DNA from: Promethearchaeota archaeon
GTDB lineage: Archaea; Asgardarchaeota; Lokiarchaeia; Sigyniarchaeales; SOKP01
DNA: 14,148 nucleotides
NCBI GenBank assembly: GCA_016839765.1
Contig: JAEOTP010000046.1
Location: 1 to 14,148, forward strand
Reading direction: 5' to 3'
Position numbers and translations under genes: made by a program. The notes under the pieces were generated by a model. It ran no database searches. It saw only the letters and a list, made by a program, of their open reading frames with translations, and was not told the DNA's origin. This document shows, piece by piece, positions 1 to 11,414 of the stretch. Every line of letters begins with the position of its first letter. Within the stretch, counting starts at the first letter, position 1.

Positions 1-131
1 GAATCCTTTAAATCTTGAAATATGGGATTGAGTTCTAAGTTCAATAGTGAAATTTTTCCCGATAAAACTTCTTTTTTTACATTTTCGATTTTTTGATTTA
101 TTTCTTTGGAATAATCTTTAAATTCAATCAT
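1..131 (-). CDS. N-terminal part of a probable kleisin/ScpA-like SMC partner (runs off the window edge; not in the ORF track)
   Basis: ATG at 131-129 overlaps the SMC stop (ATGA coupling). The frame is open to the edge: MIEFKDYSKEINQKIENVKKEVLSGKISLLNLELNPIFQDLKD. 'VLSGKISLLNLEL' loosely resembles the ScpA N-terminal 'LV..G.IDPWDIDI' segment. The CDS is well supported; the product call is weaker. Confidence 0.6.
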   Translation of the reverse strand, partial: MIEFKDYSKEINQKIENVKKEVLSGKISLLNLELNPIFQDLKD

Positions 132-3100
132 TTATTTCTTCTTTTTATTATTTTTGGATTAAATATAGTAGAAACTTCTTTCTTTCCAACCCTAGCTACG
201 CCTATTAGTTTGTCTGCTAAAAGAAACAAACTGCTTGAGGATTTTGGTAAGAACATAAGTAGCTGTATGGGATTCTGTTCGAGAGTCGCTTTTATCATTT
301 GATGAGAAGCCTCTGCATTTTTATCATCCAAAAACATACCAGCCTCATCAAACATACATAATGGTGATGACTTGATTTCTTGCAAAGATAGAATAAGACA
401 AATGGAAATCATAGAAATTTGTCCCCCACTAAGCGCCTTACAAGATTTTAATTGCTCTTTTGTAGTTGCAGCTTTGATATCTATCCCTAATTCTTCAAAA
501 TTACCAATTAAACTAAGCGAACAATAAGATTTAATATTAGCAGATTTGAATTTTTGGTTAATTCTTAACTCTAAATCATTTAATGTTGATTTAAACTTTT
601 GGTAATAAGTTTCCTCTAATTTACTTTCAGTCTTAATGGCAGCATTTATATCTTTTTGCAAACTGTCTTGATTTTTTGTAATTTCTTTCATACTTGATAA
701 GATCTGCTCTTTTTCAATTAAAATTGAGTCATCTACATCTAAATATTTCAATAAATCTTTATCTATTCTCAAAATATCTTCTTTAATCTCATTTATACTA
801 CGCATCTTAAAATCTTTTGATGCGAGTATAGAACCTATCTCAAAATTGATTCTTTCTAAATCACTTTCATTGGCCATTAATTCTTGCTCTAGGGCAGTAT
901 TTTTTAGAATTTCTTGTTCTAATTTTATTTTAACATCTAAATGCTCTTTATCAAGAAGTATTCTTTCTTTCTGGATTTCTGATTTATTTTTTTTTAACTT
1001 AGCGATATCTTCTTCTATTCCGTCAATTTTATCATCAACTAACTCTAATTTCTGGTAAATTTCAAAAGCATCCTTATCTGATTTTTGAAAAATTTGCTTT
1101 TTCAGTTCATAGTCTTGTTTTAAAGTATTTAGTTTCTCTTTATAATCATTTAATTTTTCATTAACTTCATGCCTCTGCTCTATGTTTCCGCTGAGTTTTA
1201 TTTCCCATTTTTTTAAATCTTCATTGTGAATATTTAACTCATCAGGTATTTCTTTAATTCTTTCACTCCATCTAAAAATCTCAGGCTCTCTCTGAGATTC
1301 TAAATATTGAATCTTCTTTTCTATATCAATTATGTTATTTTGAACTATAACAGTATTATTTTCAAGATTATGTATAACTTCATAGAGTCTATTCTTTTTT
1401 GTTGTTAATCTTTGTTTTTGATTAAAATTATATAAAAGATCATTAAATGCTTCTTTCTTCTTATAAAGCTCCTTTTGGATTGTATCAATTTTAGATTGTT
1501 CAACTCTTAATTCAGATATGCGCTCATTTAAGGAATTAATTTCTGACTCTAAATTGCTCAATTGTTCTTTTAGTGTACCCGTACTGAGAAATCCTTTTAA
1601 ACGCTTTTGATAAGGTGTTTCATAAACATATTTATATGAAATTAACTGTTCTCCTTTTAAAGTCACACACTTGCCTTTAAAATTATAATTTTTATAGATT
1701 TGGATACCTGAATGGTAATCTTCAACAACTAAACAGTTTTTTACTTTAGAATAAATAACTTTTTTAATATCAATATCATCATTAACAACTTTTATTAATT
1801 CTGCTAAATAACCTATAACTTTTTCGGCAGAAAATTCCAGTAAAGAGCGAATACTTAGATTTTTAGTTATGTAGATATTACAATAAGCATTGTATTTATT
1901 CTTTAATCGATTCAAAAGACTTAATGTATCCCAATCACTTACTATAAAGCTATATAGCAGCCTTTCTCCTAGAACTGATTCGATTGCATAACTTAGTTTA
2001 TCATCATATTTCAAAAAGTCGATAATTGGTCCCTTTACCTTCTTATCTAATTCCCTTTTTCCTATCTCTTCTTTTAAAATATTAATACTAGGGGGTAAAA
2101 CAACCCTACGTTCTCTTAAGGAAATTTGTAAATTTTTAAATTTGCTTATTAAATTTGTTCGTTCAAATTGTGATTTGTTTAACTCATTCCCTTGTTCAAA
2201 TAAATCTTTAGAATTTTTTCTAAGCTCATTATCAATATGCATGAGTAAATCTGTTGTTGGATTCTCAAGAAACCATTTATTTTTTTCCAATTTATGTTCA
2301 ATATCTTTAAAACTTTGAAAAATCTCATTAATTTCAGAATTTATATCTTTTATTTTATTTTTGTTTTCTTCGATTTTGGTTAAGCATTTTTGTTTTTTAT
2401 GAATCAATTGATTGTACTCTTTTAAAAAATCTTCATTTTGTTTGATCTTTTTTGCTATTATATTCTGTTCTTTTATTAAATCATCTATTTTTAATTTTAG
2501 GGCTTTTTTCTCCTTTTGAATTATGCTAATCTCGTTGTCTAAAGTTTTCTTTTGGCTCTGAACATTTCCTAGTCTCTTTTCTAATGTAATTATCTTTTGA
2601 TTTAAAATATCTAATTCTTTTTTTGCTTGTATTTTCTCTTGTTCCCAGGTCCTAATTTTTTCAATTAATTTTTTTTTTCTATAAATTAATTTCCCTAACT
2701 CTTTTGAAAAATCATTGATCTTTATTTCAATATTATTTATTTTCGAATCCTTTTCTAGAAGTATCTTTTCATAATCTTCTGTATCTTTTTTAATCTTAGC
2801 AATTACTATATGAAGGTTTTTAAATTTTTCTTTTAAAGCTAGTATTCTTTCTTCTAATTCATTCTTATTGGCATATAACAATTCATCTTCATGAACTTTC
2901 TTTAGCTCAAGTAAGTTATGTTTTTGCTTTAATCGTTTAAGTTTAGGTTGTAGAAGATTTAAACTGATATTTAAGGTATTTCTTCTACTTACTAATGATT
3001 GAAAATCTCGATTTAAATGATAAATCTTTCCCTTTTGTTGTAAAATTTCATCTCTCAATCCTTTTAATCCAATTCCTTCTTCTAAGAAGATACAAAGTTC

Positions 3101-3565
3101 AATTGGTTTTAAATTTTTAATGGCGTCGATCTTTCCTTGACTCACAAAAGCAAATTGATTATCTGGATTAATTTTTAGATCTGAAATTAGCTTTTGAATC
3201 TCAATGGCATGCGTTCGCTTGAAACCTTTATTAGTTCCTCTTTCAATCTCAAAAAAAGGTGATTGTCCTCTTATCACTAGTCTTCTTATTTTAATTCTAT
3301 CATTATTATTTTGAATATGAAGCTCAACCATTGCATGATCTTGCCCATTTCTGATAAAATCAGACCATTTTTTATATCGTTCATCTCTTTCATTACTTCC
3401 TAACGCAAATTTGATTGCCTGAAATATTGAGGTTTTTCCTGACCAATTAGGGCCAATAATTATGATGAATTTGGCATTATCAAAGTCAACCTCGTCTCTT
3501 TGAAAACTTAAGAAATTTTCAAGAATTACTTTCTTAAGAGATATATTATTAGTCTCAGTAGTGAT
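128..3565 (-). CDS. smc: SMC-family ATPase (chromosome segregation protein, SMC5/6-like motifs), about 1145 aa
   Basis: The frame stays open upstream of the ORF-track ATG (3331) to a TGA at 3586-3584 and adds ITTETNNISLKKVILENFLSFQRDEVDFDNAKFIIIIGPNWSGKTSIFQAIKFALG (Walker A). Also present: Q-loop FVSQGKID, two long coiled coils, hinge (GPIIDFL...AIESVLG...VTLKGE), signature LSGGQ and Walker B/D-loop LCMFDEAGMFLD. Start placed at ATC 3565 (or 3568) behind a strong RBS. Confidence 0.93.
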   Translation of the reverse strand: MTTETNNISLKKVILENFLSFQRDEVDFDNAKFIIIIGPNWSGKTSIFQAIKFALGSNERDERYKKWSDFIRNGQDHAMVELHIQNNNDRIKIRRLVIRGQSPFFEIERGTNKGFKRTHAIEIQKLISDLKINPDNQFAFVSQGKIDAIKNLKPIELCIFLEEGIGLKGLRDEILQQKGKIYHLNRDFQSLVSRRNTLNISLNLLQPKLKRLKQKHNLLELKKVHEDELLYANKNELEERILALKEKFKNLHIVIAKIKKDTEDYEKILLEKDSKINNIEIKINDFSKELGKLIYRKKKLIEKIRTWEQEKIQAKKELDILNQKIITLEKRLGNVQSQKKTLDNEISIIQKEKKALKLKIDDLIKEQNIIAKKIKQNEDFLKEYNQLIHKKQKCLTKIEENKNKIKDINSEINEIFQSFKDIEHKLEKNKWFLENPTTDLLMHIDNELRKNSKDLFEQGNELNKSQFERTNLISKFKNLQISLRERRVVLPPSINILKEEIGKRELDKKVKGPIIDFLKYDDKLSYAIESVLGERLLYSFIVSDWDTLSLLNRLKNKYNAYCNIYITKNLSIRSLLEFSAEKVIGYLAELIKVVNDDIDIKKVIYSKVKNCLVVEDYHSGIQIYKNYNFKGKCVTLKGEQLISYKYVYETPYQKRLKGFLSTGTLKEQLSNLESEINSLNERISELRVEQSKIDTIQKELYKKKEAFNDLLYNFNQKQRLTTKKNRLYEVIHNLENNTVIVQNNIIDIEKKIQYLESQREPEIFRWSERIKEIPDELNIHNEDLKKWEIKLSGNIEQRHEVNEKLNDYKEKLNTLKQDYELKKQIFQKSDKDAFEIYQKLELVDDKIDGIEEDIAKLKKNKSEIQKERILLDKEHLDVKIKLEQEILKNTALEQELMANESDLERINFEIGSILASKDFKMRSINEIKEDILRIDKDLLKYLDVDDSILIEKEQILSSMKEITKNQDSLQKDINAAIKTESKLEETYYQKFKSTLNDLELRINQKFKSANIKSYCSLSLIGNFEELGIDIKAATTKEQLKSCKALSGGQISMISICLILSLQEIKSSPLCMFDEAGMFLDDKNAEASHQMIKATLEQNPIQLLMFLPKSSSSLFLLADKLIGVARVGKKEVSTIFNPKIIKRRNK

Positions 3566-3569
3566 GATT

Positions 3570-3581
3570 TCACCCCCTCCT
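3570..3581 (-). promoter_or_regulatory. Shine-Dalgarno sequence for smc
   Basis: Minus strand reads AGGAGGGGGTGA immediately before A-ATC-ATC-ACT. Confidence 0.75.
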
Positions 3582-3586
3582 TTTCA

Positions 3587-4846
3587 TTATTTACCAAAAG
3601 CTTGTTTGATATGATCCATCCTTTTTTTCGCTTTTTCTAAATTGATTTGTGCTCTACTGGGAGAATCATTTAAAATAAATGGATATTTTGCTAACAGCTT
3701 TCTTTCATTTTCCTCAAGAATTTCCTTTTTATTTAATTTATCCAGAATGATAACAAGTTCTGTATAATTCTTTGAAGCCGCATTTTCATATAATTGATTC
3801 AGCATAAATTCGGAAATAGGTTGATTTTGGATGTGTTCTTGTATAGATTGAAGTTCATTAAAATTAATCTTTTTATAAGACTGCGTTTTTTGAATTTGGT
3901 TTATTTTGGAAGCAAACTTATAATTTTCATTATATAGATCTTGAATTTCTTTAGTTTTAGCTAATATAGATGGTATAAATTCACCTGATTCGATTAAATT
4001 AATTATAACAGCAGTTATTTCATTCGAAGTTTCATTCAATTCAGAATTAAGAAAATGCTTGAAAACCGCTGTTTTTAATAAATGTTTTATTTCTTGAATT
4101 TCCCAATTCTGCGTATATTTAACAATTTGATTAATATCAAATACTATTTTTTGATTCTTTTCAGAAAAATTTTTCAGTACTATTTCCCTTTCACTATTAC
4201 TTAATAAAGGGATTTTAATGAAAAGATCAAAAATCTGAAAGATATCTTTTGAGTTTTTTTCTATTTCATTAAGATTTTTATTTATCCATATTAAAATGAT
4301 TCCATTTTCTAGGAAAGTAAATTCATAATTTTTAAGGGTATTAATAAAGAGTTTCAATAAATTCTTTTCATTAAGTAAAGTTTCTGTTAATTCTACTTGA
4401 TCAATTAAAAACAATTTGTTTGGTTTATTTTTTTCATTAACTTCATCGTAACCGTTTTTATTTTCATTTAGATTATTGACTTTACAAGTCAAATCCTCTA
4501 TAATTTGCTTTAGAATAATATTAAAATTTTTAAAGAATTCTTTAGGTTCTTTTGAAATTTCTAAATAGTTTAATTCTACAAAGTCTAAATAATAATTCTT
4601 TGAAATTAATTTTAAGAAATCTAAGATATCTGTACCAGAATCAATATTGATTAAAAGTAAGCCTTTAGGTATAAGGTATTGTTGAATTGTTGAGTATTCA
4701 TTGTTTGTTAACATTCTCTTTATATAGTTAATTATATCGTTATATTTATCTCTATAAAATATGTCTTCTCTCTTGATATCAATTTCCGATGGCGAAATTA
4801 CTCGGTAATATTGATTATATCTTAAATTTGTTTCTGGTTCCTTCAT
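3587..4846 (-). CDS. Degenerate (probably inactive) CDC48/p97-like AAA+ domain protein with C-terminal helical extension
   Basis: Follows the classic AAA layout: IPKGLLLINIDSGTDI (eroded Walker A), LFLIDQ (Walker B with E to Q), IILIWINKNLNEIE (SRH position), FDLFIKIPLLSNSEREIVLK and DINQIVKYTQNWEIQEIKHLLKTAV (lid). Confidence 0.7.
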   Translation of the reverse strand: MKEPETNLRYNQYYRVISPSEIDIKREDIFYRDKYNDIINYIKRMLTNNEYSTIQQYLIPKGLLLINIDSGTDILDFLKLISKNYYLDFVELNYLEISKEPKEFFKNFNIILKQIIEDLTCKVNNLNENKNGYDEVNEKNKPNKLFLIDQVELTETLLNEKNLLKLFINTLKNYEFTFLENGIILIWINKNLNEIEKNSKDIFQIFDLFIKIPLLSNSEREIVLKNFSEKNQKIVFDINQIVKYTQNWEIQEIKHLLKTAVFKHFLNSELNETSNEITAVIINLIESGEFIPSILAKTKEIQDLYNENYKFASKINQIQKTQSYKKINFNELQSIQEHIQNQPISEFMLNQLYENAASKNYTELVIILDKLNKKEILEENERKLLAKYPFILNDSPSRAQINLEKAKKRMDHIKQAFGK

Positions 4847-4925: not shown

Positions 4926-5118
4926 CCACAGTTTTGAATAATTAAACAACCGACAAAAATCGTAAAGTTTATAAAATCATAATTTTAGGTAAACCTGTTT
5001 AATTAAATGCATCAGAAATTTATATGTAATTCTTATTTCAAGTACCTATTTAAATAAGTCTAATCTTCTAATACTCTTAAGAATTCTTTAACTCGTATGC
5101 TGATATTTAAAGCAATAA

Positions 5119-5128
5119 TAAAAAAAAT
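5119..5128 (-). terminator. Oligo-T terminator candidate after the DUF2769 gene
   Basis: A-run on the plus strand (T-run on minus) just downstream of the stop at 5141. Confidence 0.4.
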
Positions 5129-5140
5129 TAGTTAAGTATT

Positions 5141-5401
5141 TTACTTCCTACCCTCGATTCCATGCATACAAAACCATCCGCCTTCTAGATCAAATTTTGA
5201 AAAAAGGTCACACTTAAAACAATTACAACCCTTATCTTCTACTTGATCCATTGGCTTTGTAGTTTTTCCTCTGGAACAAAAAAGAGCATGTGGTTCTAAT
5301 TCGTTTAATTTGTTTGGTTTAAAAGTAGGGCAAGGACCACAGAACTTTTTACAGATATCCATATTTTCGGGGGTATTTGGAACTGGTTGAGGCATTTTCA
5401 T
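5141..5401 (-). CDS. DUF2769-like small Cys-rich (metal/Fe-S-binding) protein
   Basis: Pattern VPNTPEN..C...CGPCPTF...LFCSRGK...GCNCFKC...WFC..G with 9 Cys in 86 aa; GGAG RBS upstream. Confidence 0.75.
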   Translation of the reverse strand: MKMPQPVPNTPENMDICKKFCGPCPTFKPNKLNELEPHALFCSRGKTTKPMDQVEDKGCNCFKCDLFSKFDLEGGWFCMHGIEGRK

Positions 5402-5587
5402 CTAACTCCGTTCATACAATAAGTTTTTATATTAATTTTTTCGAAATTCTTTATTAAACAATAATAAAATTTTCGATTACGATATACTAAACTCTACAAA
5501 CTTTTAAAATTAATAGTTATAGATTATAGATTTTGAATGAAGATGATCATCTAGTAAAAAATAAGGTTTTAAAGTATAAAATTGAAA

Positions 5588-5992
5588 TTATGTAATACTA
5601 AATTCATGATTTAGATTATTTAATTGCTCCTTAAATTCATCTTTTATGAGACTATAATAAGTAAACTTCCCCTTTTTCCAACCCCTTATTAAATTAGCTT
5701 TCTCTAATTCTCGTAAATGGTGAGATATCGAAGATTGGGATTTATCTAAGATTGCCTCCAATTCACATACGCAACGATCTTTCTCTTTTAACGCGTTTAT
5801 TATAGTAATTCTTTCTTTATTTCCCAAAGCATTTAAAAAAGTAAAAATTAAATCTAATTTCTCATCCAATCTTAATTGCGTTCCTAATTGTTGTAAATTT
5901 TCAAAATATTTGTCACTATCAAAACACTCATCACAGCTACAAAGCATTTGTTTGATTTCAGTCTTGCGATCTATTTTTATAAAAATCACCAA
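5588..5992 (-). CDS. arsR: ArsR/SmtB-family metalloregulatory repressor
   Basis: ALGNKERITII...DRCVCELEAILDKSQSSISHHLRELEKANLI...KKGKFTYYSL, a winged HTH with the alpha3 CVC As(III) site, plus an extra N-terminal CSCDEC. Divergent from the acr3/arsC operon. The start is uncertain (TTG 5992, GTG 5989 or ATA 5980). Confidence 0.93.
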   Translation of the reverse strand: MVIFIKIDRKTEIKQMLCSCDECFDSDKYFENLQQLGTQLRLDEKLDLIFTFLNALGNKERITIINALKEKDRCVCELEAILDKSQSSISHHLRELEKANLIRGWKKGKFTYYSLIKDEFKEQLNNLNHEFSIT

Positions 5993-6050
5993 TTATTATC
6001 AATAAAAAATCTCTTTATTATTTTAGAAGTTATTAAATTATAAAAATTTT

Positions 6051-6098
6051 ATTCATATCGAATCATTTAGATTCACATCGAAACATTTTTATTTGAAA
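6051..6098. promoter_or_regulatory. Tandem ArsR operator candidates overlapping a BRE/TATA-like element
   Basis: Direct repeat with 20-bp period: ATTCATATCGAATCATTT (6051-6068) and ATTCACATCGAAACATTT (6071-6088). Each copy holds a dyad core ATnnAAnnnnTTnnAT (6057-6072, 6077-6092). It lies between the divergent arsR and the operon. Confidence 0.65.
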
Positions 6099-6141
6099 TA
6101 TTCTATTAATATCTTAAGCTCTAACCATATAGAATTCACAA

Positions 6142-6894
6142 ATGAATAAAATGGAAAACAATAAAAAACTTAAGATTGGATTAATTTCTGACGGTAAGTA
6201 CGGAGATAGAGCATATGAAAATATAAAAAAGAAATTTGAAACTGACTGGATACTCCTCCCAGAGATACCACCAAATATTATGTTAGATGATGAGCTTGGT
6301 TTTGAAATTCCTGAGTGTGACCTTTACATTTCATATATTCGGCATCCAGATATAATGCTAAAATTAGCAGAGCTTCAAAAACCATTGATTTTGGGCATAC
6401 TTCCGGGAATTGGGTTATACTTACAAACCAGAGAAATAAATCCTAAAGTTATTTATGCACCTACAATTTGTTCATTGGAAAATAATACAGGGATTCCTGA
6501 AATTGACCTATTTACTAGTTATTTCGGCCGACCTATTTATCAAGTTAAGATAAATGAGGATAGGGTTATTAATGACATTGAAGTACGTCGTTCTTCACTA
6601 TGTGGGTCTTCTGAAGCTGGAGCGAAATTCCTACTAAATAAAACTTTTAATAAAGAAAATCTTCAATATTTTGCTTTAAGTGTTTGTTATGAATGTCGTG
6701 CACCCCGTTTTGGGCATACTTGTGATAAGGAAGTAGCGGGAATTATTCATTTGGTTTCAATTTTTGAGAGTATATCCACAGAAATTTCAAACAAATTTGA
6801 TAAAAATTTAAAATCCTTTATCAAAGATATTGGAAAGGAATATAAAAGAAGATCTAAAAATTCAGAGTTATTACAAAAAGAGGTAATAATTTAA
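6142..6894 (+). CDS. DUF166-family protein
   Basis: Motifs DGKYGDRA, CDLYISY..HPD, P.ICSL, FGRP, V.RSSLCGSS match the archaeal DUF166 family as I recall it; additional CYEC...C near the C-terminus. Confidence 0.75.
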   Translation: MNKMENNKKLKIGLISDGKYGDRAYENIKKKFETDWILLPEIPPNIMLDDELGFEIPECDLYISYIRHPDIMLKLAELQKPLILGILPGIGLYLQTREINPKVIYAPTICSLENNTGIPEIDLFTSYFGRPIYQVKINEDRVINDIEVRRSSLCGSSEAGAKFLLNKTFNKENLQYFALSVCYECRAPRFGHTCDKEVAGIIHLVSIFESISTEISNKFDKNLKSFIKDIGKEYKRRSKNSELLQKEVII

Positions 6895-6897
6895 ATT

Positions 6898-7977
6898 ATG
6901 CAAGAAAAAGAATTAAATAAAGCTGGAAAGGAAATTATAGATAGTATTGAGGTTAAAGAAGAAAAGGGTAAAAAAATTAGCTTTTTTGAAAAATTTCTTC
7001 CTCTTTGGGTGGCTATATGTATCTTTATAGGAATTTTGTTATCACAAATTTTTCCGGGGATAAGTAAAACAATAGAGTCTTTAAAAATTGGAGAAATTTC
7101 TATACCAATTGGAATTTGTTTATTCCTAATGATGTATCCTGCGATGTTGAATCTACAAGCTTCTGAATTAAAAAAATTGGGTAAGAATCCTAAACCAATC
7201 ATCTTAACACTAGTCTCTAATTGGCTGATTGCGCCTTTTGTAGGTTTAGCGATGATTAGACTCTTTTTACCTGGAAATGAACAATTATCAGTTGCTATTA
7301 TTTTATTGTCAAGTTCACCATGTACTGCAATGGTTCTTGTGTGGGGCTGGATGGCACGAGGTAATCAAGAACAAAATGTAATAAATACCAGTTTAAATAC
7401 AATGACGATCATATTTGGGTATGCTCCTTTAGTCGCATTGTTAACAGGGATTCAAAACATACCAATTGACTGGGTTCTCTTATTAATATCGATATTCATT
7501 TTTATAGGACTTCCTTTAGTATTGGGAATAGTAAGTAAAAGAATATTAATCTCTTCTAAAGGAGAAAATTGGTTTAATAACACTTATCGACCAATCGTAG
7601 GAAAAATTTCGATTATAGCTTTATTAACGACATTAATAGTACTTTTTTCATTGAATGGAGATGTTCTAATTCACAATCCAGATTTACTAGTATTAGTTTC
7701 TATTCCACTTTTAGTAGGATTTCTAATTGTTGTTGGTTATAACATTTTAATTACTAAACTTTTCAAACTGAAATATAAAGAGGCTGTTATAACTGTAATT
7801 ATTGGATCTTCAAGTCACTTTGAAATTGCAATTGCTACTGCTATTGCTATGTATGGAATTGGTTCAGTTGCTGCTTTAGGTACAACTATGGGTTTATTTT
7901 GGGAGGTTCCTGTAATGCTTTCAATAGTATATTTAGGTAAATATCTAAAAAAACGTGGATTTTGGAAATCTGAATAA
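6898..7977 (+). CDS. acr3: Acr3-family arsenite efflux transporter
   Basis: About 10 hydrophobic helices with FFEKFLPLWV, LMMYPAM, NWLIAPF, PCTAMVLVW (essential Cys), SSHFEIAIA and EVPVML; GAGGT RBS upstream. Confidence 0.96.
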   Translation: MQEKELNKAGKEIIDSIEVKEEKGKKISFFEKFLPLWVAICIFIGILLSQIFPGISKTIESLKIGEISIPIGICLFLMMYPAMLNLQASELKKLGKNPKPIILTLVSNWLIAPFVGLAMIRLFLPGNEQLSVAIILLSSSPCTAMVLVWGWMARGNQEQNVINTSLNTMTIIFGYAPLVALLTGIQNIPIDWVLLLISIFIFIGLPLVLGIVSKRILISSKGENWFNNTYRPIVGKISIIALLTTLIVLFSLNGDVLIHNPDLLVLVSIPLLVGFLIVVGYNILITKLFKLKYKEAVITVIIGSSSHFEIAIATAIAMYGIGSVAALGTTMGLFWEVPVMLSIVYLGKYLKKRGFWKSE

Positions 7978-8028: not shown

Positions 8029-9693
8029 ATGGCTGTCGTCTACATGCGAAAGTTGGAGCAAGAACCAAAAAGTTATGACTCAAATTTTACTACTCTTACA
8101 AAGGGAGTAAATCTCGAAATTCAAGATTGGGTTCTTGATCACATCAATACTTCAGAATCAATTTTAGAAATCGGATGTGGTACCGGTATACTAGCTGCCA
8201 AAATGGCATTAAAAGGGAATGATGTTATTGCTATTGATAAAAATTTTCAAATGATTAATTATGCAATGAAAAATTACCCTCAAAAAGAAAATTTACATTT
8301 ACTATTTCAAATAGGTTCATTTTCTAACCTTCAAGCTGAACATCATTCGAAAGATATATTAGTGAGCACATTCATGTTATCAGAATTACGTCCATTTGAG
8401 CAGCAAATTTTTCTTCGGAATGCATGGAAAGCATTAAAACCAGAAGGACGATTAATTATAGCCGCTGAATTTATCCCTTCGGGATTTTGGAAATTAGTTT
8501 TTAAGATTAAGAGATGGCGGTATAAAAAAAAGCTTAGAAGACTTCGATTAAAAAGTACTTTCCTTTTGAAATGGTTTTTTAATTATCTAGAGCCGATAGG
8601 ATTTAAAATCAATGCTCAAAAAAAATGGAAACATGGCTCTATTCAAGTTATGGAACTAAAAAAGATAAATTACAACCAAACTGAGGAATCTGGTTATTAT
8701 CGTCCTATACCAAAAAAATTTAAGGGACTTCGTTCTCAATTTAGGATTTATCGATGCATTTTTACTGGACAAGTTGATCATGTTCCTATTGAACCAGGCA
8801 TTTACCAAGCTGGCAATCCTGATAAAAATTCTCCGATTATTGTTACAGCCAATTATGAGTATAGCTACATTAAAGTGATGAGAGATTTGAAAGATATTAG
8901 TGCGTGGGTATTATGTGTAGATTCTAATGGAATTAATGTGTGGTGTGCTGCTCGTGGTAATAATTTTGGGAATGCACAACTACTCGAAGCGATAGAAGCG
9001 ACTGGCATTCAAAATTATACAAGTAAAAAAACTTTATTACTCCCCCAACTCTCTGCTGGGGGGGTAGCTATTCCAGATTTACCAATAAATTCAGAAAAAT
9101 TCCCATTTAAGGTAAAATATGGTCCAGTTTGGTCGAAACATATACCAAATTACTTAAAAGATCAACCTTCCAAAAAATCAGAAAAAATGAGGCTTGCCAG
9201 ATTTACAATTTCTCATCGTATCCGCGCTGGAATAACGCATACCACATTTCTATTCCGTAAAATATTCATGTTGCCCATTTTGGCTTTACTAGTGTTATTT
9301 TTAGGCCTATACATCTTTACAGTTTTTGATAAATTATGGTGGATTGGTGAACTGTGTATCTGGATTTTATTTCCTAATATGATTATATTTTTGTTATTTC
9401 CACTTTCAAAATTTACTCAGAAATTTGTAAATAAAGGATTTTTCTTTGGATTTATTAATATAGTCATTTTAGGTGGATTAACGTGGTTAATACATAATTC
9501 AATTTTTTATACTCTGATTAATTTACCTTTTTTCATTTGGATCACATTTTTTTCAACGATGTCTTTTAGTGGTTATACAATGGCAACAAGCCCAAGAAAA
9601 ATTGAAAATGAATATCCCATTTTTAGCAAATTAAATAAAATTTTACTATTGATAAGTTTGGTTTCCTTACCAATTGGAATTATATTTTATTAA
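8029..9693 (+). CDS. hgcA: Fusion protein: N-terminal class I SAM-dependent methyltransferase plus HgcA-like corrinoid-binding domain and C-terminal membrane domain
   Basis: Residues ~1-215: ILEIGCGTG, VIAIDKN, ALKPEGRLII. Residues ~250-400: PGIY..G.P..NSPIIVTANY, GINVWCAARG (cap helix, Cys306, nt 8935-8958), LLLPQLSAGGV, VKYGPV, KMR.ARF. Residues ~405-554: about 5 TM helices with SGYTMATS...E. The symbol indicates homology, not proven Hg methylation. Confidence 0.88.
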   Translation: MAVVYMRKLEQEPKSYDSNFTTLTKGVNLEIQDWVLDHINTSESILEIGCGTGILAAKMALKGNDVIAIDKNFQMINYAMKNYPQKENLHLLFQIGSFSNLQAEHHSKDILVSTFMLSELRPFEQQIFLRNAWKALKPEGRLIIAAEFIPSGFWKLVFKIKRWRYKKKLRRLRLKSTFLLKWFFNYLEPIGFKINAQKKWKHGSIQVMELKKINYNQTEESGYYRPIPKKFKGLRSQFRIYRCIFTGQVDHVPIEPGIYQAGNPDKNSPIIVTANYEYSYIKVMRDLKDISAWVLCVDSNGINVWCAARGNNFGNAQLLEAIEATGIQNYTSKKTLLLPQLSAGGVAIPDLPINSEKFPFKVKYGPVWSKHIPNYLKDQPSKKSEKMRLARFTISHRIRAGITHTTFLFRKIFMLPILALLVLFLGLYIFTVFDKLWWIGELCIWILFPNMIIFLLFPLSKFTQKFVNKGFFFGFINIVILGGLTWLIHNSIFYTLINLPFFIWITFFSTMSFSGYTMATSPRKIENEYPIFSKLNKILLLISLVSLPIGIIFY

Positions 9694-9739
9694 AATAATA
9701 AAAAAAATTAAAAAGTATAAAAAGATAGAGGTTATAAAG

Positions 9740-10045
9740 ATGACAGAAATAGATTTTAAAACACTTAATTTTACCGAAATCGTAAAGAATATACGAATTT
9801 TTATTAATCGAGATGCGTGTAATGGATGTGGATTGTGTAGAGAGATATGTCCTTTTGGATTACCTCAACCTAGCAATAATGGAAAATATGAAATAACAAA
9901 CCCTGATCTCTGCACAGAATGTAGCGCTTGTAAAAGAAATTGTCCGACTCAAGCTATTATTATGCAAGAACAAGCGGGTTGTGGATGTTTGTGGAATGTT
10001 AGGAATAGAGTAAAGAACTCAAATCAATCGTGTAATTGTGGTTAA
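9740..10045 (+). CDS. hgcB: HgcB-like 2x[4Fe-4S] ferredoxin with Cys-rich tail
   Basis: CNGCGLCREICP and CTECSACKRNCP, then AGCGC and a terminal SCNCG; directly downstream of the hgcA-like gene. Start moved from TTG 9674 to ATG 9740, which has a GAGGT RBS at 9728-9732 and avoids overlap. Confidence 0.85.
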   Translation: MTEIDFKTLNFTEIVKNIRIFINRDACNGCGLCREICPFGLPQPSNNGKYEITNPDLCTECSACKRNCPTQAIIMQEQAGCGCLWNVRNRVKNSNQSCNCG

Positions 10046-10063
10046 AATATTTGGTTATTAATC

Positions 10064-10336
10064 ATGGAAGAAAATAACAAATTAAGAGTTGACATTTATG
10101 TTCCATTAGATACATGCTCCTGTGAATGGGATAAGTTTATGAATCGTGTTTTTACTGTTTTAACACCTTATATCAAATATATTACTTATGATACTAAAAA
10201 TCTTAATTCTGAGGAAGCAAGAAACCTAAATTTACATGGAAATACTATAGTTGTTGACAATAAGAAAAAATATACCGCTTCCTATTCATTAAAAACAGAT
10301 TTGCCCAATTTACTTAGAGAAAAAGGTTTGCTTTAA
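10064..10336 (+). CDS. Small thioredoxin-fold-like protein with CxC motif (possible metallochaperone or redox partner)
   Basis: Strand VDIYVP followed by DTCSC, a helix, then EEARNLNLHGNTIVVD resembling the thioredoxin/glutaredoxin C-terminal motif without the cis-Pro. Confidence 0.6.
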   Translation: MEENNKLRVDIYVPLDTCSCEWDKFMNRVFTVLTPYIKYITYDTKNLNSEEARNLNLHGNTIVVDNKKKYTASYSLKTDLPNLLREKGLL

Positions 10337-10366
10337 TCCTATTGATTAAATTAAGGTGGTTAAAAA

Positions 10367-10723
10367 ATTAAAAAAATAGAATTTGAAATTAGTATACCTG
10401 TAAAAGGGCTCCAACAGGGTAAAAAATATACACTTAATGTCGAAGATAATACTGTTTTCATAGAAACATTAGCACTGGTGGATAAAATCGAGATGGCAGA
10501 GACCAAGAACATGATTTTTCCCCTATATGAAGGTTATATTCATAGTTATCTTCAGCTTTTTGTAAATCTAGAAGAAGATTCAATATACGATGATGTTGGG
10601 GTGTATGCATATGCGCCTGATGAGCATGGAATTATGCAAAAGTTTAACCCTATTAGAGAAAATATTGAATTCAACTTATATCCTGATAGTGTGATTCAAT
10701 TACAACCAGATGTAGGATGTTGA
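10367..10723 (+). CDS. Beta-grasp (ubiquitin/MoaD-like) protein ending Gly-Cys; candidate selenoprotein
   Basis: The frame is open upstream of GTG 10478 to TAA 10361-10363. ATT 10367 follows RBS AAGGTGGT (10353-10360) and gives (M)KKIEFEISIPVKGLQQGKKYTLNVEDNTVFIETLALVDK...LYPDSVIQLQPDVGC, which parallels the MoaD/Urm1 'L.DGD.I...P...GG' ending. It ends TGT-TGA-TGA. Confidence 0.65.
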   Translation: MKKIEFEISIPVKGLQQGKKYTLNVEDNTVFIETLALVDKIEMAETKNMIFPLYEGYIHSYLQLFVNLEEDSIYDDVGVYAYAPDEHGIMQKFNPIRENIEFNLYPDSVIQLQPDVGC

Positions 10724-10826
10724 TGAGAAAAGGTGAAAGAAAGATTGGACATTGGAACCCTTAAAACAATAATACGGCAAAAATATGGTAAAAGTAATAA
10801 ATATTTTGCACACTATTTCCAAACTT

Positions 10827-10881
10827 AATTTTTTGGATGATATCTTTCAAGAAATTGTAGTGAAAGGTTGACAAAGGGATT
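10827..10881 (+). other. Eukaryote/Lokiarchaeota-type SECIS-like RNA hairpin
   Basis: Lower stem AATTTTTT (10827-10834) with AAGGGATT (10874-10881; three G-U pairs). Core ATGAT (10837-10841) with TGAC (10869-10872). Upper 8-bp stem ATCTTTCA (10842-10849) with TGAAAGGT (10861-10868). Loop AGAAATTGTAG has unpaired As. Confidence 0.55.
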
Positions 10882-10982
10882 GCCTCCTATATATCATATA
10901 AAAAACCTTAAAATTACTAAAAGACATACTAAAAAAAATTTAGCACATAATTCTCGAAATAATTTAAAAACAAGTGTTATCA

Positions 10983-11414
10983 ATGGAGAAACCAAAAGTA
11001 GTTTTTCTTTGTACTGGAAATTCGGCACGTAGTCAAATGGCAGAAGCATTTCTTAAAAAGCATGCAGGTGAGCATTTTGAAGTATATAGTGCTGGGTTCG
11101 AACCTCAAGGTATACATCCTTTTACTATAAAAGTAATGGAAGAATTAGGTTATGATTTAAAAGATCAATATTCTAAAGAATTAAAGGAATTCTTAGAAAA
11201 AGTTCACTTTGGAATTGTTATAACTGTATGTGAAAAAGCTGAAAAGACCTGCCCAATTATTCCTGGAGTAAGTACTAGGTTATTTTGGTCATTTGAAGAC
11301 CCTGCAGCATTTGAAGGAACAGAACAGGAAAAAATCAATAAATTTCGACAAGTCAGGGACCAAATTCATCAAAAAATTCAAGTATGGTTAAAAGAAAGAG
11401 GAATTTTAAAGTAA
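10983..11414 (+). CDS. arsC: Thioredoxin-coupled arsenate reductase (LMW-PTP fold)
   Basis: FLCTGNSARSQMAE P-loop, YSAG, ITVC......CP redox cysteines and W.FEDP. ATG 10983 is preferred over GTG 10974. Confidence 0.95.
   Translation: MEKPKVVFLCTGNSARSQMAEAFLKKHAGEHFEVYSAGFEPQGIHPFTIKVMEELGYDLKDQYSKELKEFLEKVHFGIVITVCEKAEKTCPIIPGVSTRLFWSFEDPAAFEGTEQEKINKFRQVRDQIHQKIQVWLKERGILK

Follow-up and report, generated by a model that had tools for sequence, protein, structure and literature searches.

The fusion gene and its ferredoxin partner

The stretch of DNA analysed here (the window) is the entire 14.1-kb contig JAEOTP010000046.1 of a 3.3-Mb Loki-type Asgard archaeal genome with a completeness of 96%. 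On its forward strand lies a gene (8029..9693) for a protein of 554 amino acids (aa) in which a CpaM-like S-adenosyl methionine (SAM) methyltransferase is fused to an HgcA-like corrinoid membrane protein, and the next gene (9740..10045, +) encodes an HgcB-like ferredoxin. Both genes are part of an arsenic (ars) operon, in which DUF166, ACR3, the fusion, the ferredoxin, a small CxC protein, a candidate tandem-selenocysteine (Sec-Sec) protein and arsC follow one another on one strand with intergenic gaps of 3 to 145 nt, divergent from arsR. A preliminary description of the locus had recognised an uninterrupted fusion of SAM-binding, corrinoid and membrane domains with a ferredoxin behind it, and this architecture is borne out by the open reading frame (ORF), which has no internal stop, by Pfam and NCBIfam profiles, by homologue searches and by the AlphaFold2 model.

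The class I SAM methyltransferase domain (aa 1-221; 8029..8691, +) scores 138.8 bits with the CpaM model NF043040, and Foldseek matches its structure to SAM methyltransferases; Pfam and NCBIfam both assign aa 3-211 to the class I methyltransferase/CpaM type. Its motif I, ILEIGCGTG (aa 45-53; nt 8161-8187), contains the sole cysteine of aa 1-221. The corrinoid-binding domain (aa 252-393; 8782..9207, +) is matched by NF043039 (173.4 bits), NF040863 (167.2 bits) and PF03599 (56.3 bits), the assignment of aa 252-544 being HgcAB_like/HgcA_corrinoid in NCBIfam and CdhD in Pfam, and its nearest solved proteins by sequence are corrinoid iron-sulfur protein (CFeSP) large subunits. The cap-helix motif reads NVWCAARG (aa 303-310; nt 8935-8958), with the codon of Cys306 at 8944-8946. 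The membrane domain (aa 394-553; 9208..9690, +) is predicted by hydropathy and by the secondary structure of the model to form five helices (394-430, 437-460, 466-489, 492-516 and 529-553), in agreement with the approximately five transmembrane (TM) helices expected of HgcA.

Built from a 48-sequence alignment, the AlphaFold2 model reached a predicted local distance difference test (pLDDT) of 90.4 and a predicted template modelling score (pTM) of 0.87, and shows a Rossmann methyltransferase fold and another alpha/beta domain, with five long helices at the C-terminus. In Foldseek, the deposited HgcA model 9a0b_A ranks first among its structural matches and SAM methyltransferases come next. Residues G49, G51, G53, D70, E119, E147, N303, V304, C306 and A308 are invariant across the 48 fusions, down to 26% identity.

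The ferredoxin (101 aa) carries the cluster motifs CNGCGLCREIC and CTECSACKRNC, that is, two CX2CX2CX3C motifs, followed by a Cys-rich tail in which a GCGC comes behind the clusters and CNCG provides a Cys pair at the C-terminus, so that the additional cysteines behind the clusters and at the C-terminus of HgcB are present. The C(M/I)ECGAC motif of HgcB is not, CTECSAC standing in its place; CIECGAC is found in the ferredoxins of distant fusions. Across an alignment of 23 sequences, the eight cluster cysteines, GCGC and the terminal cysteine are invariant or nearly so. The start is most likely the ATG at 9740 rather than the TTG at 9674, since relatives begin at an equivalent MTE... sequence. 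A ferredoxin gene lies 3' of the fusion in all 20 orthologous loci and in 19 of 20 distant ones (39/40 in total).

Distribution of the fusion

A total of 526 homologues of the fusion were found, the best 120 of which are all about 550 aa long, 64-92% identical and derived from Asgard metagenome-assembled genomes (MAGs) in NCBI, JGI, ENA and Logan assemblies. The survey of other genomes that the preliminary description had called for gave a match in 76 of 201 sampled Asgard genomes; a scan of genome contigs returned MAGs only. Orthologues of full length, with at least 56% identity, occur mainly in the family of the window, where 33 of 40 genomes carry one, and full-length fusions occur in other Asgard families at 29-35% identity. 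A search of 1.8 billion cluster representatives yielded approximately 15 clusters of fusion length, down to 26-30% identity. The fusion is genuine, and neither a chimera nor a chance ORF, because its homologues are full-length across assemblies and in 33 of the 40 family genomes; the assembly chimera named earlier as a possible refutation did not materialise.

Some genomes that hold an orthologue also contain a second, distant (about 30% identity) full-length paralogue of the same architecture (G008:C11:17981-19480, G083:C53:18946-20454, G171:C23:30966-32480 and G168:C10:233-1738). Each of these four matches includes one to three in-frame TAA/TAG codons, which could reflect pseudogenes, short introns or bridging by the alignment.

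Placement outside canonical HgcA

Maximum-likelihood trees rooted on the CdhE of the same genome recovered a canonical HgcA clade of 67 tips with a Shimodaira-Hasegawa-like approximate likelihood ratio test (SH-aLRT) support of 97 in the first tree, and of 68 tips with an SH-aLRT of 94 and a branch length of 1.09 in the second. Both exclude the query and all 37 HgcA-like sequences that are fused or adjacent to CpaM. The fusion is thus outside canonical HgcA, in a CpaM-associated sister group, and the divergent clade suspected in the preliminary description was recovered, in line with a different substrate. The cap helices follow the same division. Canonical representatives read NVWCAAGKGT, the GK being present in 63 of 70 single-domain representatives, and the orthologue clade of the window reads NVWCAARG; relative to the N(V/I)WCA(A/G)GK of HgcA, the cysteine is kept and GK is replaced by RG. 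Variants of the ...GGH type occur in distant fusions and in HgcA-ferredoxin fusions. The present tree agrees with that of Lin et al. (2023; PMC10083202), in which Asgard sequences fell with the clade of fused HgcAB; the first 327 alignment columns were trimmed in that study, so the methyltransferase domain would have been removed.

Grouping of the corrinoid domain with CdhE, which would have spoken against an HgcA-type protein, was not observed. A CdhE paralogue is rejected. The score with the CdhE/CFeSP large-subunit model (NF003195) is 72.2 bits against a cut-off of 306 and covers the C-terminal corrinoid domain only, not the N-terminal [4Fe-4S] and TIM-barrel region, and the CdhE of the genome lies elsewhere, on contig C17. 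Apart from this CdhE, the genome contains no HgcA-like gene besides the fusion.

Partnership with CpaM and predicted docking

The association of CpaM with HgcAB-like proteins is already named in NCBIfam; no paper on the pair, on the fusion or on its arsenic operon was found in the searchable literature. On a bacterial contig (L024), a stand-alone CpaM (275 bits, cut-off 180) abuts a true HgcAB_like protein (389 bits, cut-off 285). Among 16 HgcA-like loci in Asgard genomes (the L107-L122 set), a CpaM-like gene immediately precedes the HgcA-like gene, in the same orientation, in each of the 15 non-canonical ones, with the ferredoxin either fused to the HgcA-like protein or encoded by the next gene. 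The single canonical locus of the set, with a GK cap helix, has no CpaM neighbour, and at two further informative canonical hgcA loci the upstream gene belongs to the MarR or ArsR family and no methyltransferase is present. The methyltransferase (MT), HgcA-like (A) and ferredoxin (B) modules of the sister clade therefore occur fused as MT-A with B separate (as in the window), as three separate genes, and as MT beside a fused A-B. These three arrangements constitute Rosetta-stone evidence that the methyltransferase acts on or with the corrinoid protein, for this sister clade only, and the constant company of CpaM in all three supports methyl loading from SAM onto Co(I).

The preliminary description had extended the Rosetta-stone clue to HgcA-type enzymes in general. 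It holds for the non-canonical HgcAB-like sister clade, with CpaM in 15 of 15 loci, but not for canonical HgcA, whose three informative loci are without CpaM; moreover, purified canonical HgcAB uses SAM by itself (Zheng 2024, PMC11588087).

In a split-chain model, the methyltransferase domain of the window was offered as a chain of its own together with the HgcA-like part, the ferredoxin and SAM, and no cobamide was included. The methyltransferase domain, to which alone the score applies, docked on the corrinoid part with an ipSAE of 0.75, compared with 0.00 for the best of three controls, and the runs shared at least 94% of contacts with a partner pLDDT of at least 85. In calibration, 58 of 80 solved complexes and 2 of 110 mismatched pairs reached the mark, counts that are only a rough guide here, given the custom alignments and the SAM ligand riding along. 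At the predicted interface, residues 121-130 of the methyltransferase, just behind the invariant LSE119, meet residues 255-258, D298, N300 and 320-330, which flank the cap helix in the model. Such an arrangement is consistent with a SAM site that looks towards the corrinoid pocket, in a geometry that is predicted from a cobamide-free model.

The ars operon and its candidate operator motif

The strongest clue to the substrate, which the preliminary description had missed, is the ArsR-ACR3-ArsC operon around the fusion. The divergent ArsR/SmtB-family regulator (5588..5992, -; NF033788, 76.9 bits, cut-off 55; PF01022) has a CVC site (RCVCELE). Two tandem copies of ATTCAYATCGAAWCATTT, an 18-nt direct repeat and candidate ArsR operator (6051..6088, +), lie 70-90 nt 5' of the first operon gene, which encodes a DUF166 protein (6142..6894, +; PF02593, 105 bits) present in part of the related operons. 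This protein also has several Cys motifs and a weak match to the DUF166 (seleno)protein DfsP model (45.9 bits versus 200). It is followed by an ACR3 arsenite efflux transporter (6898..7977, +; TIGR00832, 283.4 bits, cut-off 282.8), and the operon ends with a thioredoxin-type arsenate reductase ArsC of the low-molecular-weight protein tyrosine phosphatase fold (10974..11414, +; PF01451), which scores 138.7 bits with TIGR02691 (cut-off 174.3) but has the CX5R loop and a Cys pair seven residues apart. One cluster thus unites an arsenate reductase and an ACR3 pump with a regulator bearing a Cys site for metalloid binding.

In relatives, a TTCAYATCGAA core recurs at -70/-92 of whichever gene stands first opposite arsR, be it DUF166, ACR3 or the fusion, and in L038, L039, L081 and L106 it stands at -91/-92 of the fusion itself; by base composition, about 0.03 matches per locus would be expected by chance. 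The arsR intergenic region contains no inverted repeat, the tandem direct repeat lying there instead, and a sigma-70 promoter/terminator scan, whose model is not applicable to archaea, remained at background level. As judged from these sequence features, control of the operon by arsenite or antimonite is likely.

Among 20 orthologous loci from other genomes, some ars gene is adjacent in 15 and ACR3 lies upstream in 11, in arrangements that include ArsR-[DUF166]-ACR3-fusion, ArsR-fusion, ArsM-DUF166-fusion and ACR3-ArsM-fusion. A true ArsM (347 bits, cut-off 263) is encoded at 5079-5960 of one locus (L003), in the same operon as the fusion, and an ArsM-like match was noted at about 5339-6118 of another (L051, with the fusion oriented to the + strand). 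No ArsM above the cut-off was found in the genome of the window by a profile search of its 96%-complete assembly. A MarR regulator and an NADPH-dependent FMN reductase lie upstream of the fusion and ferredoxin in one genus (L042, 6626-10333; also L045, L046, L048 and L049); by NCBIfam the reductase is not ArsH, and it may be an alternative electron donor.

On the upstream side of arsR, an SMC gene and a gene for a 419-aa protein without a family match (128-4846, -) are found in synteny with arsR and this operon across many relatives; therefore, much of the context of the fusion is inherited synteny.

The small CxC protein and the candidate selenoprotein

Two small ORFs between the ferredoxin and arsC match no Pfam or NCBIfam family. 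The first (10064..10336, +) encodes a small conserved CxC protein (CSCEW), a candidate thiol carrier for which atlas features alone give a thioredoxin-fold lead (Thioredoxin_3 at 0.90). Its relatives in L003 and L005 have an additional N-terminal CC-rich extension.

The second ORF (10367..10828, +) is a candidate for a tandem-selenocysteine (UU) protein of approximately 153 aa. It runs past position 10723 through an in-frame TGA-TGA (10721-10726) into a conserved tail of about 33 aa that ends at a TAA at 10826, and the in-frame TGA-TGA is strictly conserved throughout the relatives that were found, at 31 loci with more than 20 distinct sequences. The start is probably an ATT, because this codon aligns with the ATG of orthologues. 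Two subfamilies, ..DVGC-UU-EKVK.. and ..VHAD-UU-ADxM.., can be distinguished, and one locus (L084) encodes both in tandem (9503-9955 and 10093-10551). A single domain is predicted for the read-through product (pLDDT 89.8), whose Foldseek matches are confined to weak ones with beta-grasp folds (E ~0.01); the atlas yielded no usable lead for it. An element resembling a selenocysteine insertion sequence (SECIS) follows at 10837..10898 (+), with the pattern AUGA-NN-helix-loop-helix-UUGA and then a second covarying hairpin, as deduced from 20 distinct relatives; no Rfam SECIS family matched in 10300-11000. The genome has a tRNA-Sec and a SelD gene, the latter itself with an in-frame TGA. CU and CC motifs of HgcA, HgcB and other proteins have been linked to organometallic chemistry (Haft & Gwadz, preprint 10.1101/2022.07.06.499078), a pattern that the candidate Sec-Sec protein beside the fusion fits and would extend.

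Proposed function and alternative explanations

We propose, with a probability of about one half, that the fusion and its ferredoxin form a three-module corrinoid methyltransferase of the non-canonical, CpaM-associated HgcAB sister clade, with As(III) or Sb(III) as the likeliest acceptor. What is shown is how the domains are arranged, where the protein falls in the tree, which partners are conserved and what surrounds the gene in the operon; every chemical step is inferred, and so is the substrate. Canonical HgcAB takes its methyl group from SAM via Cys-ligated methyl-Co(III) after low-potential reduction (Zheng 2024, PMC11588087), and from this demonstrated route, SAM to Co(I) to metal, the same cycle is proposed for the pair. 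The N-terminal CpaM-type domain would bind SAM and methylate Co(I) in a cobamide. The central Rossmann-like domain would hold this cobamide, Cys306 serving as its lower ligand, and the ferredoxin would supply the low-potential electrons that make or restore Co(I). The methyl group of methyl-Co(III) would then pass to a soft metal(loid) at a membrane-anchored active site. The GCGC and C-terminal Cys pair of the ferredoxin may hand over a thiophilic substrate, and the small CxC protein and candidate Sec-Sec protein are probable thiol or selenol carriers. In the orthologue clade, the acceptor would most likely be As(III), possibly Sb(III), rather than mercury, because the fusion belongs to an operon under probable ArsR control, with ACR3, ArsC and, in some relatives, ArsM, and a conserved motif stands before the first gene.

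Several observations weigh against this proposal. The profile search suggested in the preliminary description returned CpaM, HgcAB_like, HgcA and HgcB as the best families, yet every score lies under its NCBIfam cut-off: CpaM 138.8-141.8 bits (profile positions 2-215 of 216) versus 180, HgcAB_like 173.4 bits (profile positions 14-248 only) versus 285, HgcA 167.2 bits versus 275 and, for the ferredoxin, HgcB (NF040864) 56.6 bits versus 99. CpaM is nevertheless the best methyltransferase family by about 90 bits, the next reaching 49.7 bits; the class I SAM-binding motifs (ILEIGCGTG, D70) are intact, and a distant fusion (P0137) passes the CpaM cut-off with 211.5 bits. The C-terminally fused ferredoxin of HgcAB_like is a separate gene here, and the partnership with a CpaM methyltransferase is present as an N-terminal fusion. 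Because these cut-offs are missed and the fusion lies outside the canonical clade, the pair is filed as an HgcAB-like system working with a dedicated SAM loader and not as a member of HgcA. In addition, CobS and CbiC were not found in the 96%-complete genome, despite CdhE and the corrinoid protein of the fusion; the organism therefore probably salvages its cobamides.

Other counterpoints concern the substrate and are shared with the best-surviving alternative, according to which the same SAM-corrinoid-ferredoxin machinery serves Hg(II), another soft metal or a small molecule, and the ars context reflects shared regulation or synteny. Five of the 20 orthologous loci, all from one genus, have MarR-FMN reductase-fusion-ferredoxin instead of ars genes, and the distant fusions and CpaM/HgcAB-like pairs are mostly without ars genes (ArsR-like 3/20, ACR3 0/20). 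The arsenic context is confined to one group of related genomes, which are non-independent samples, and may go back to a single ancestral event. Canonical hgcAB, which is not known to methylate arsenic, often neighbours ars genes and is subject to an ArsR-like regulator (PMC7438021; bioRxiv 10.1101/2022.10.17.512643), so that the ars context alone does not name the substrate. Where ArsM shares the operon, as in L003, a second arsenite methylase looks redundant, but the two are probably not redundant in the operons in which they coexist. On the other side, the ars linkage survives several rearrangements, and the arsR-side motif stands directly before the fusion in some genomes. With respect to mercury in particular, the fusion is not part of the canonical clade of Hg methylators (SH-aLRT 94-97), there is no GK in its cap helix, and a fused HgcAB relative from Pyrococcus furiosus is reported not to have methylated Hg (Podar 2015, cited in PMC10083202). 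A non-arsenic acceptor is accordingly an unlikely, though serious, competitor to arsenite or antimonite.

A less probable explanation is that the complex donates no methyl groups to metal(loid)s, that the reduced corrinoid serves other chemistry, e.g., reductive halomethane dehalogenation, a role lately suggested for HgcAB, and that the methyltransferase domain only reactivates it, as in methionine synthase. Dechlorination of CCl4 by expressed HgcAB has been reported (preprint 10.64898/2026.04.26.720869), and SAM-dependent reactivation of Co(II) is textbook knowledge for MetH. However, a dedicated SAM domain that is never missing, is fused one to one and keeps its motifs invariant suits catalytic loading better than occasional repair. 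The operon contains nothing related to halocarbons, and partner proteins rich in thiols and selenols suggest soft metal(loid)s. Direct methylation of As(III) from SAM by an ArsM-like N-terminal domain, with the HgcA-like part as an anchor or accessory, is very improbable. The arsenic operon and a weak similarity to ArsM-type models (34.6-44.6 bits) would suit it, but the ArsM model itself (NF008823) gives 34.6 bits against a cut-off of 263, CpaM, a family defined by its association with a corrinoid protein, is the best match by far, and Cys306 and the corrinoid fold are invariant. The domain also lacks the As(III)-binding cysteines of ArsM, because its only cysteine lies in motif I, and a direct ArsM-type methylase is rejected on these grounds. 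An assembly or gene-calling artefact can be dismissed, given hundreds of independent full-length copies from several assembly sources and the confident single-chain model.

If the preferred reading of an arsenite- or antimonite-methylating corrinoid enzyme is taken to its full extent, a self-charging SAM:cobamide:metalloid methyltransferase with a Sec-Sec carrier might be the long-sought enzyme of anaerobic cobamide-dependent As/Sb methylation, a possibility that we regard as tentative. The original task of the HgcAB superfamily would then have been to handle metalloids with the help of a separate subunit for SAM loading, which was lost afterwards in canonical HgcAB. The locus thus bears on how HgcA-type corrinoid proteins obtain their methyl group and on what they evolved to do. 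To our knowledge, no SAM-binding site is known in HgcAB, and the recognisable fused SAM methyltransferase gives mutagenesis a concrete point of access to the loading step. The role of SAM as the methyl donor of HgcAB was itself shown only in 2024 (Zheng 2024, PMC11588087). The ars operon, with its ArsR-side motif directly before the fusion in some relatives, makes the substrate hypothesis testable, and a test with arsenic would bear on anaerobic arsenic cycling in sediments rich in Asgard archaea. The candidate Sec-Sec neighbour adds to the reported connection of selenoproteins with organometallic chemistry.

Comparison with known systems

The closest known system is the pair of CpaM (NF043040) and HgcAB_like (NF043039), families that are named from context and rank as hypothetical equivalogs in NCBIfam. 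It shares with the window a CpaM-type methyltransferase, a Cys-capped HgcA-like membrane protein and a 2x[4Fe-4S] ferredoxin, as well as membership of the same non-canonical clade with a cap helix without GK. The window differs in having the opposite fusion, with the methyltransferase joined to the HgcA-like protein and the ferredoxin separate, in scoring under both family cut-offs, in its ...AARG cap helix and in the presence of its orthologues in ars operons.

Canonical HgcA and HgcB (NF040863/NF040864; Parks 2013; Zheng 2024, PMC11588087) resemble the pair in the N-V-W-C cap helix, the five TM helices, the neighbouring ferredoxin, which bears a C-terminal Cys pair, and the proposed derivation of the methyl group from SAM. 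In contrast, the window has RG for GK and CTECSAC for CIECGAC, falls outside the canonical clade with scores under the cut-offs, and possesses an extra SAM methyltransferase domain of 220 aa in place of the N-terminal extension of HgcA. Unlike the clade of the window, the canonical HgcA loci that were checked are without CpaM.

The CFeSP large subunit (AcsC/CdhE) and its methyltransferase MeTr have a homologous corrinoid domain (E 8e-9 to 1e-7; PDB 9fzy, 2h9a, 4c1n) and likewise load Co(I) by means of a separate methyltransferase. However, the methyl group of CFeSP comes from methyl-H4folate or a methyl-pterin via a TIM-barrel methyltransferase, and CFeSP has a [4Fe-4S] domain of its own, no Cys ligand and no membrane domain.

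ArsM is SAM-dependent and encoded in ars operons, and might be a functional analogue, but it is corrinoid-free and binds As(III) by conserved cysteines that the domain of the window lacks. The two are distinct proteins, because a true ArsM sits beside the fusion in L003. Lastly, SAM methylates reduced cobalamin in the reactivation module of MetH, where flavodoxin, a low-potential carrier, supplies the electron, much as the ferredoxin may do here; in MetH, this is a repair step and not the catalytic source of the methyl group, and it takes place on an unrelated SAM-binding fold.

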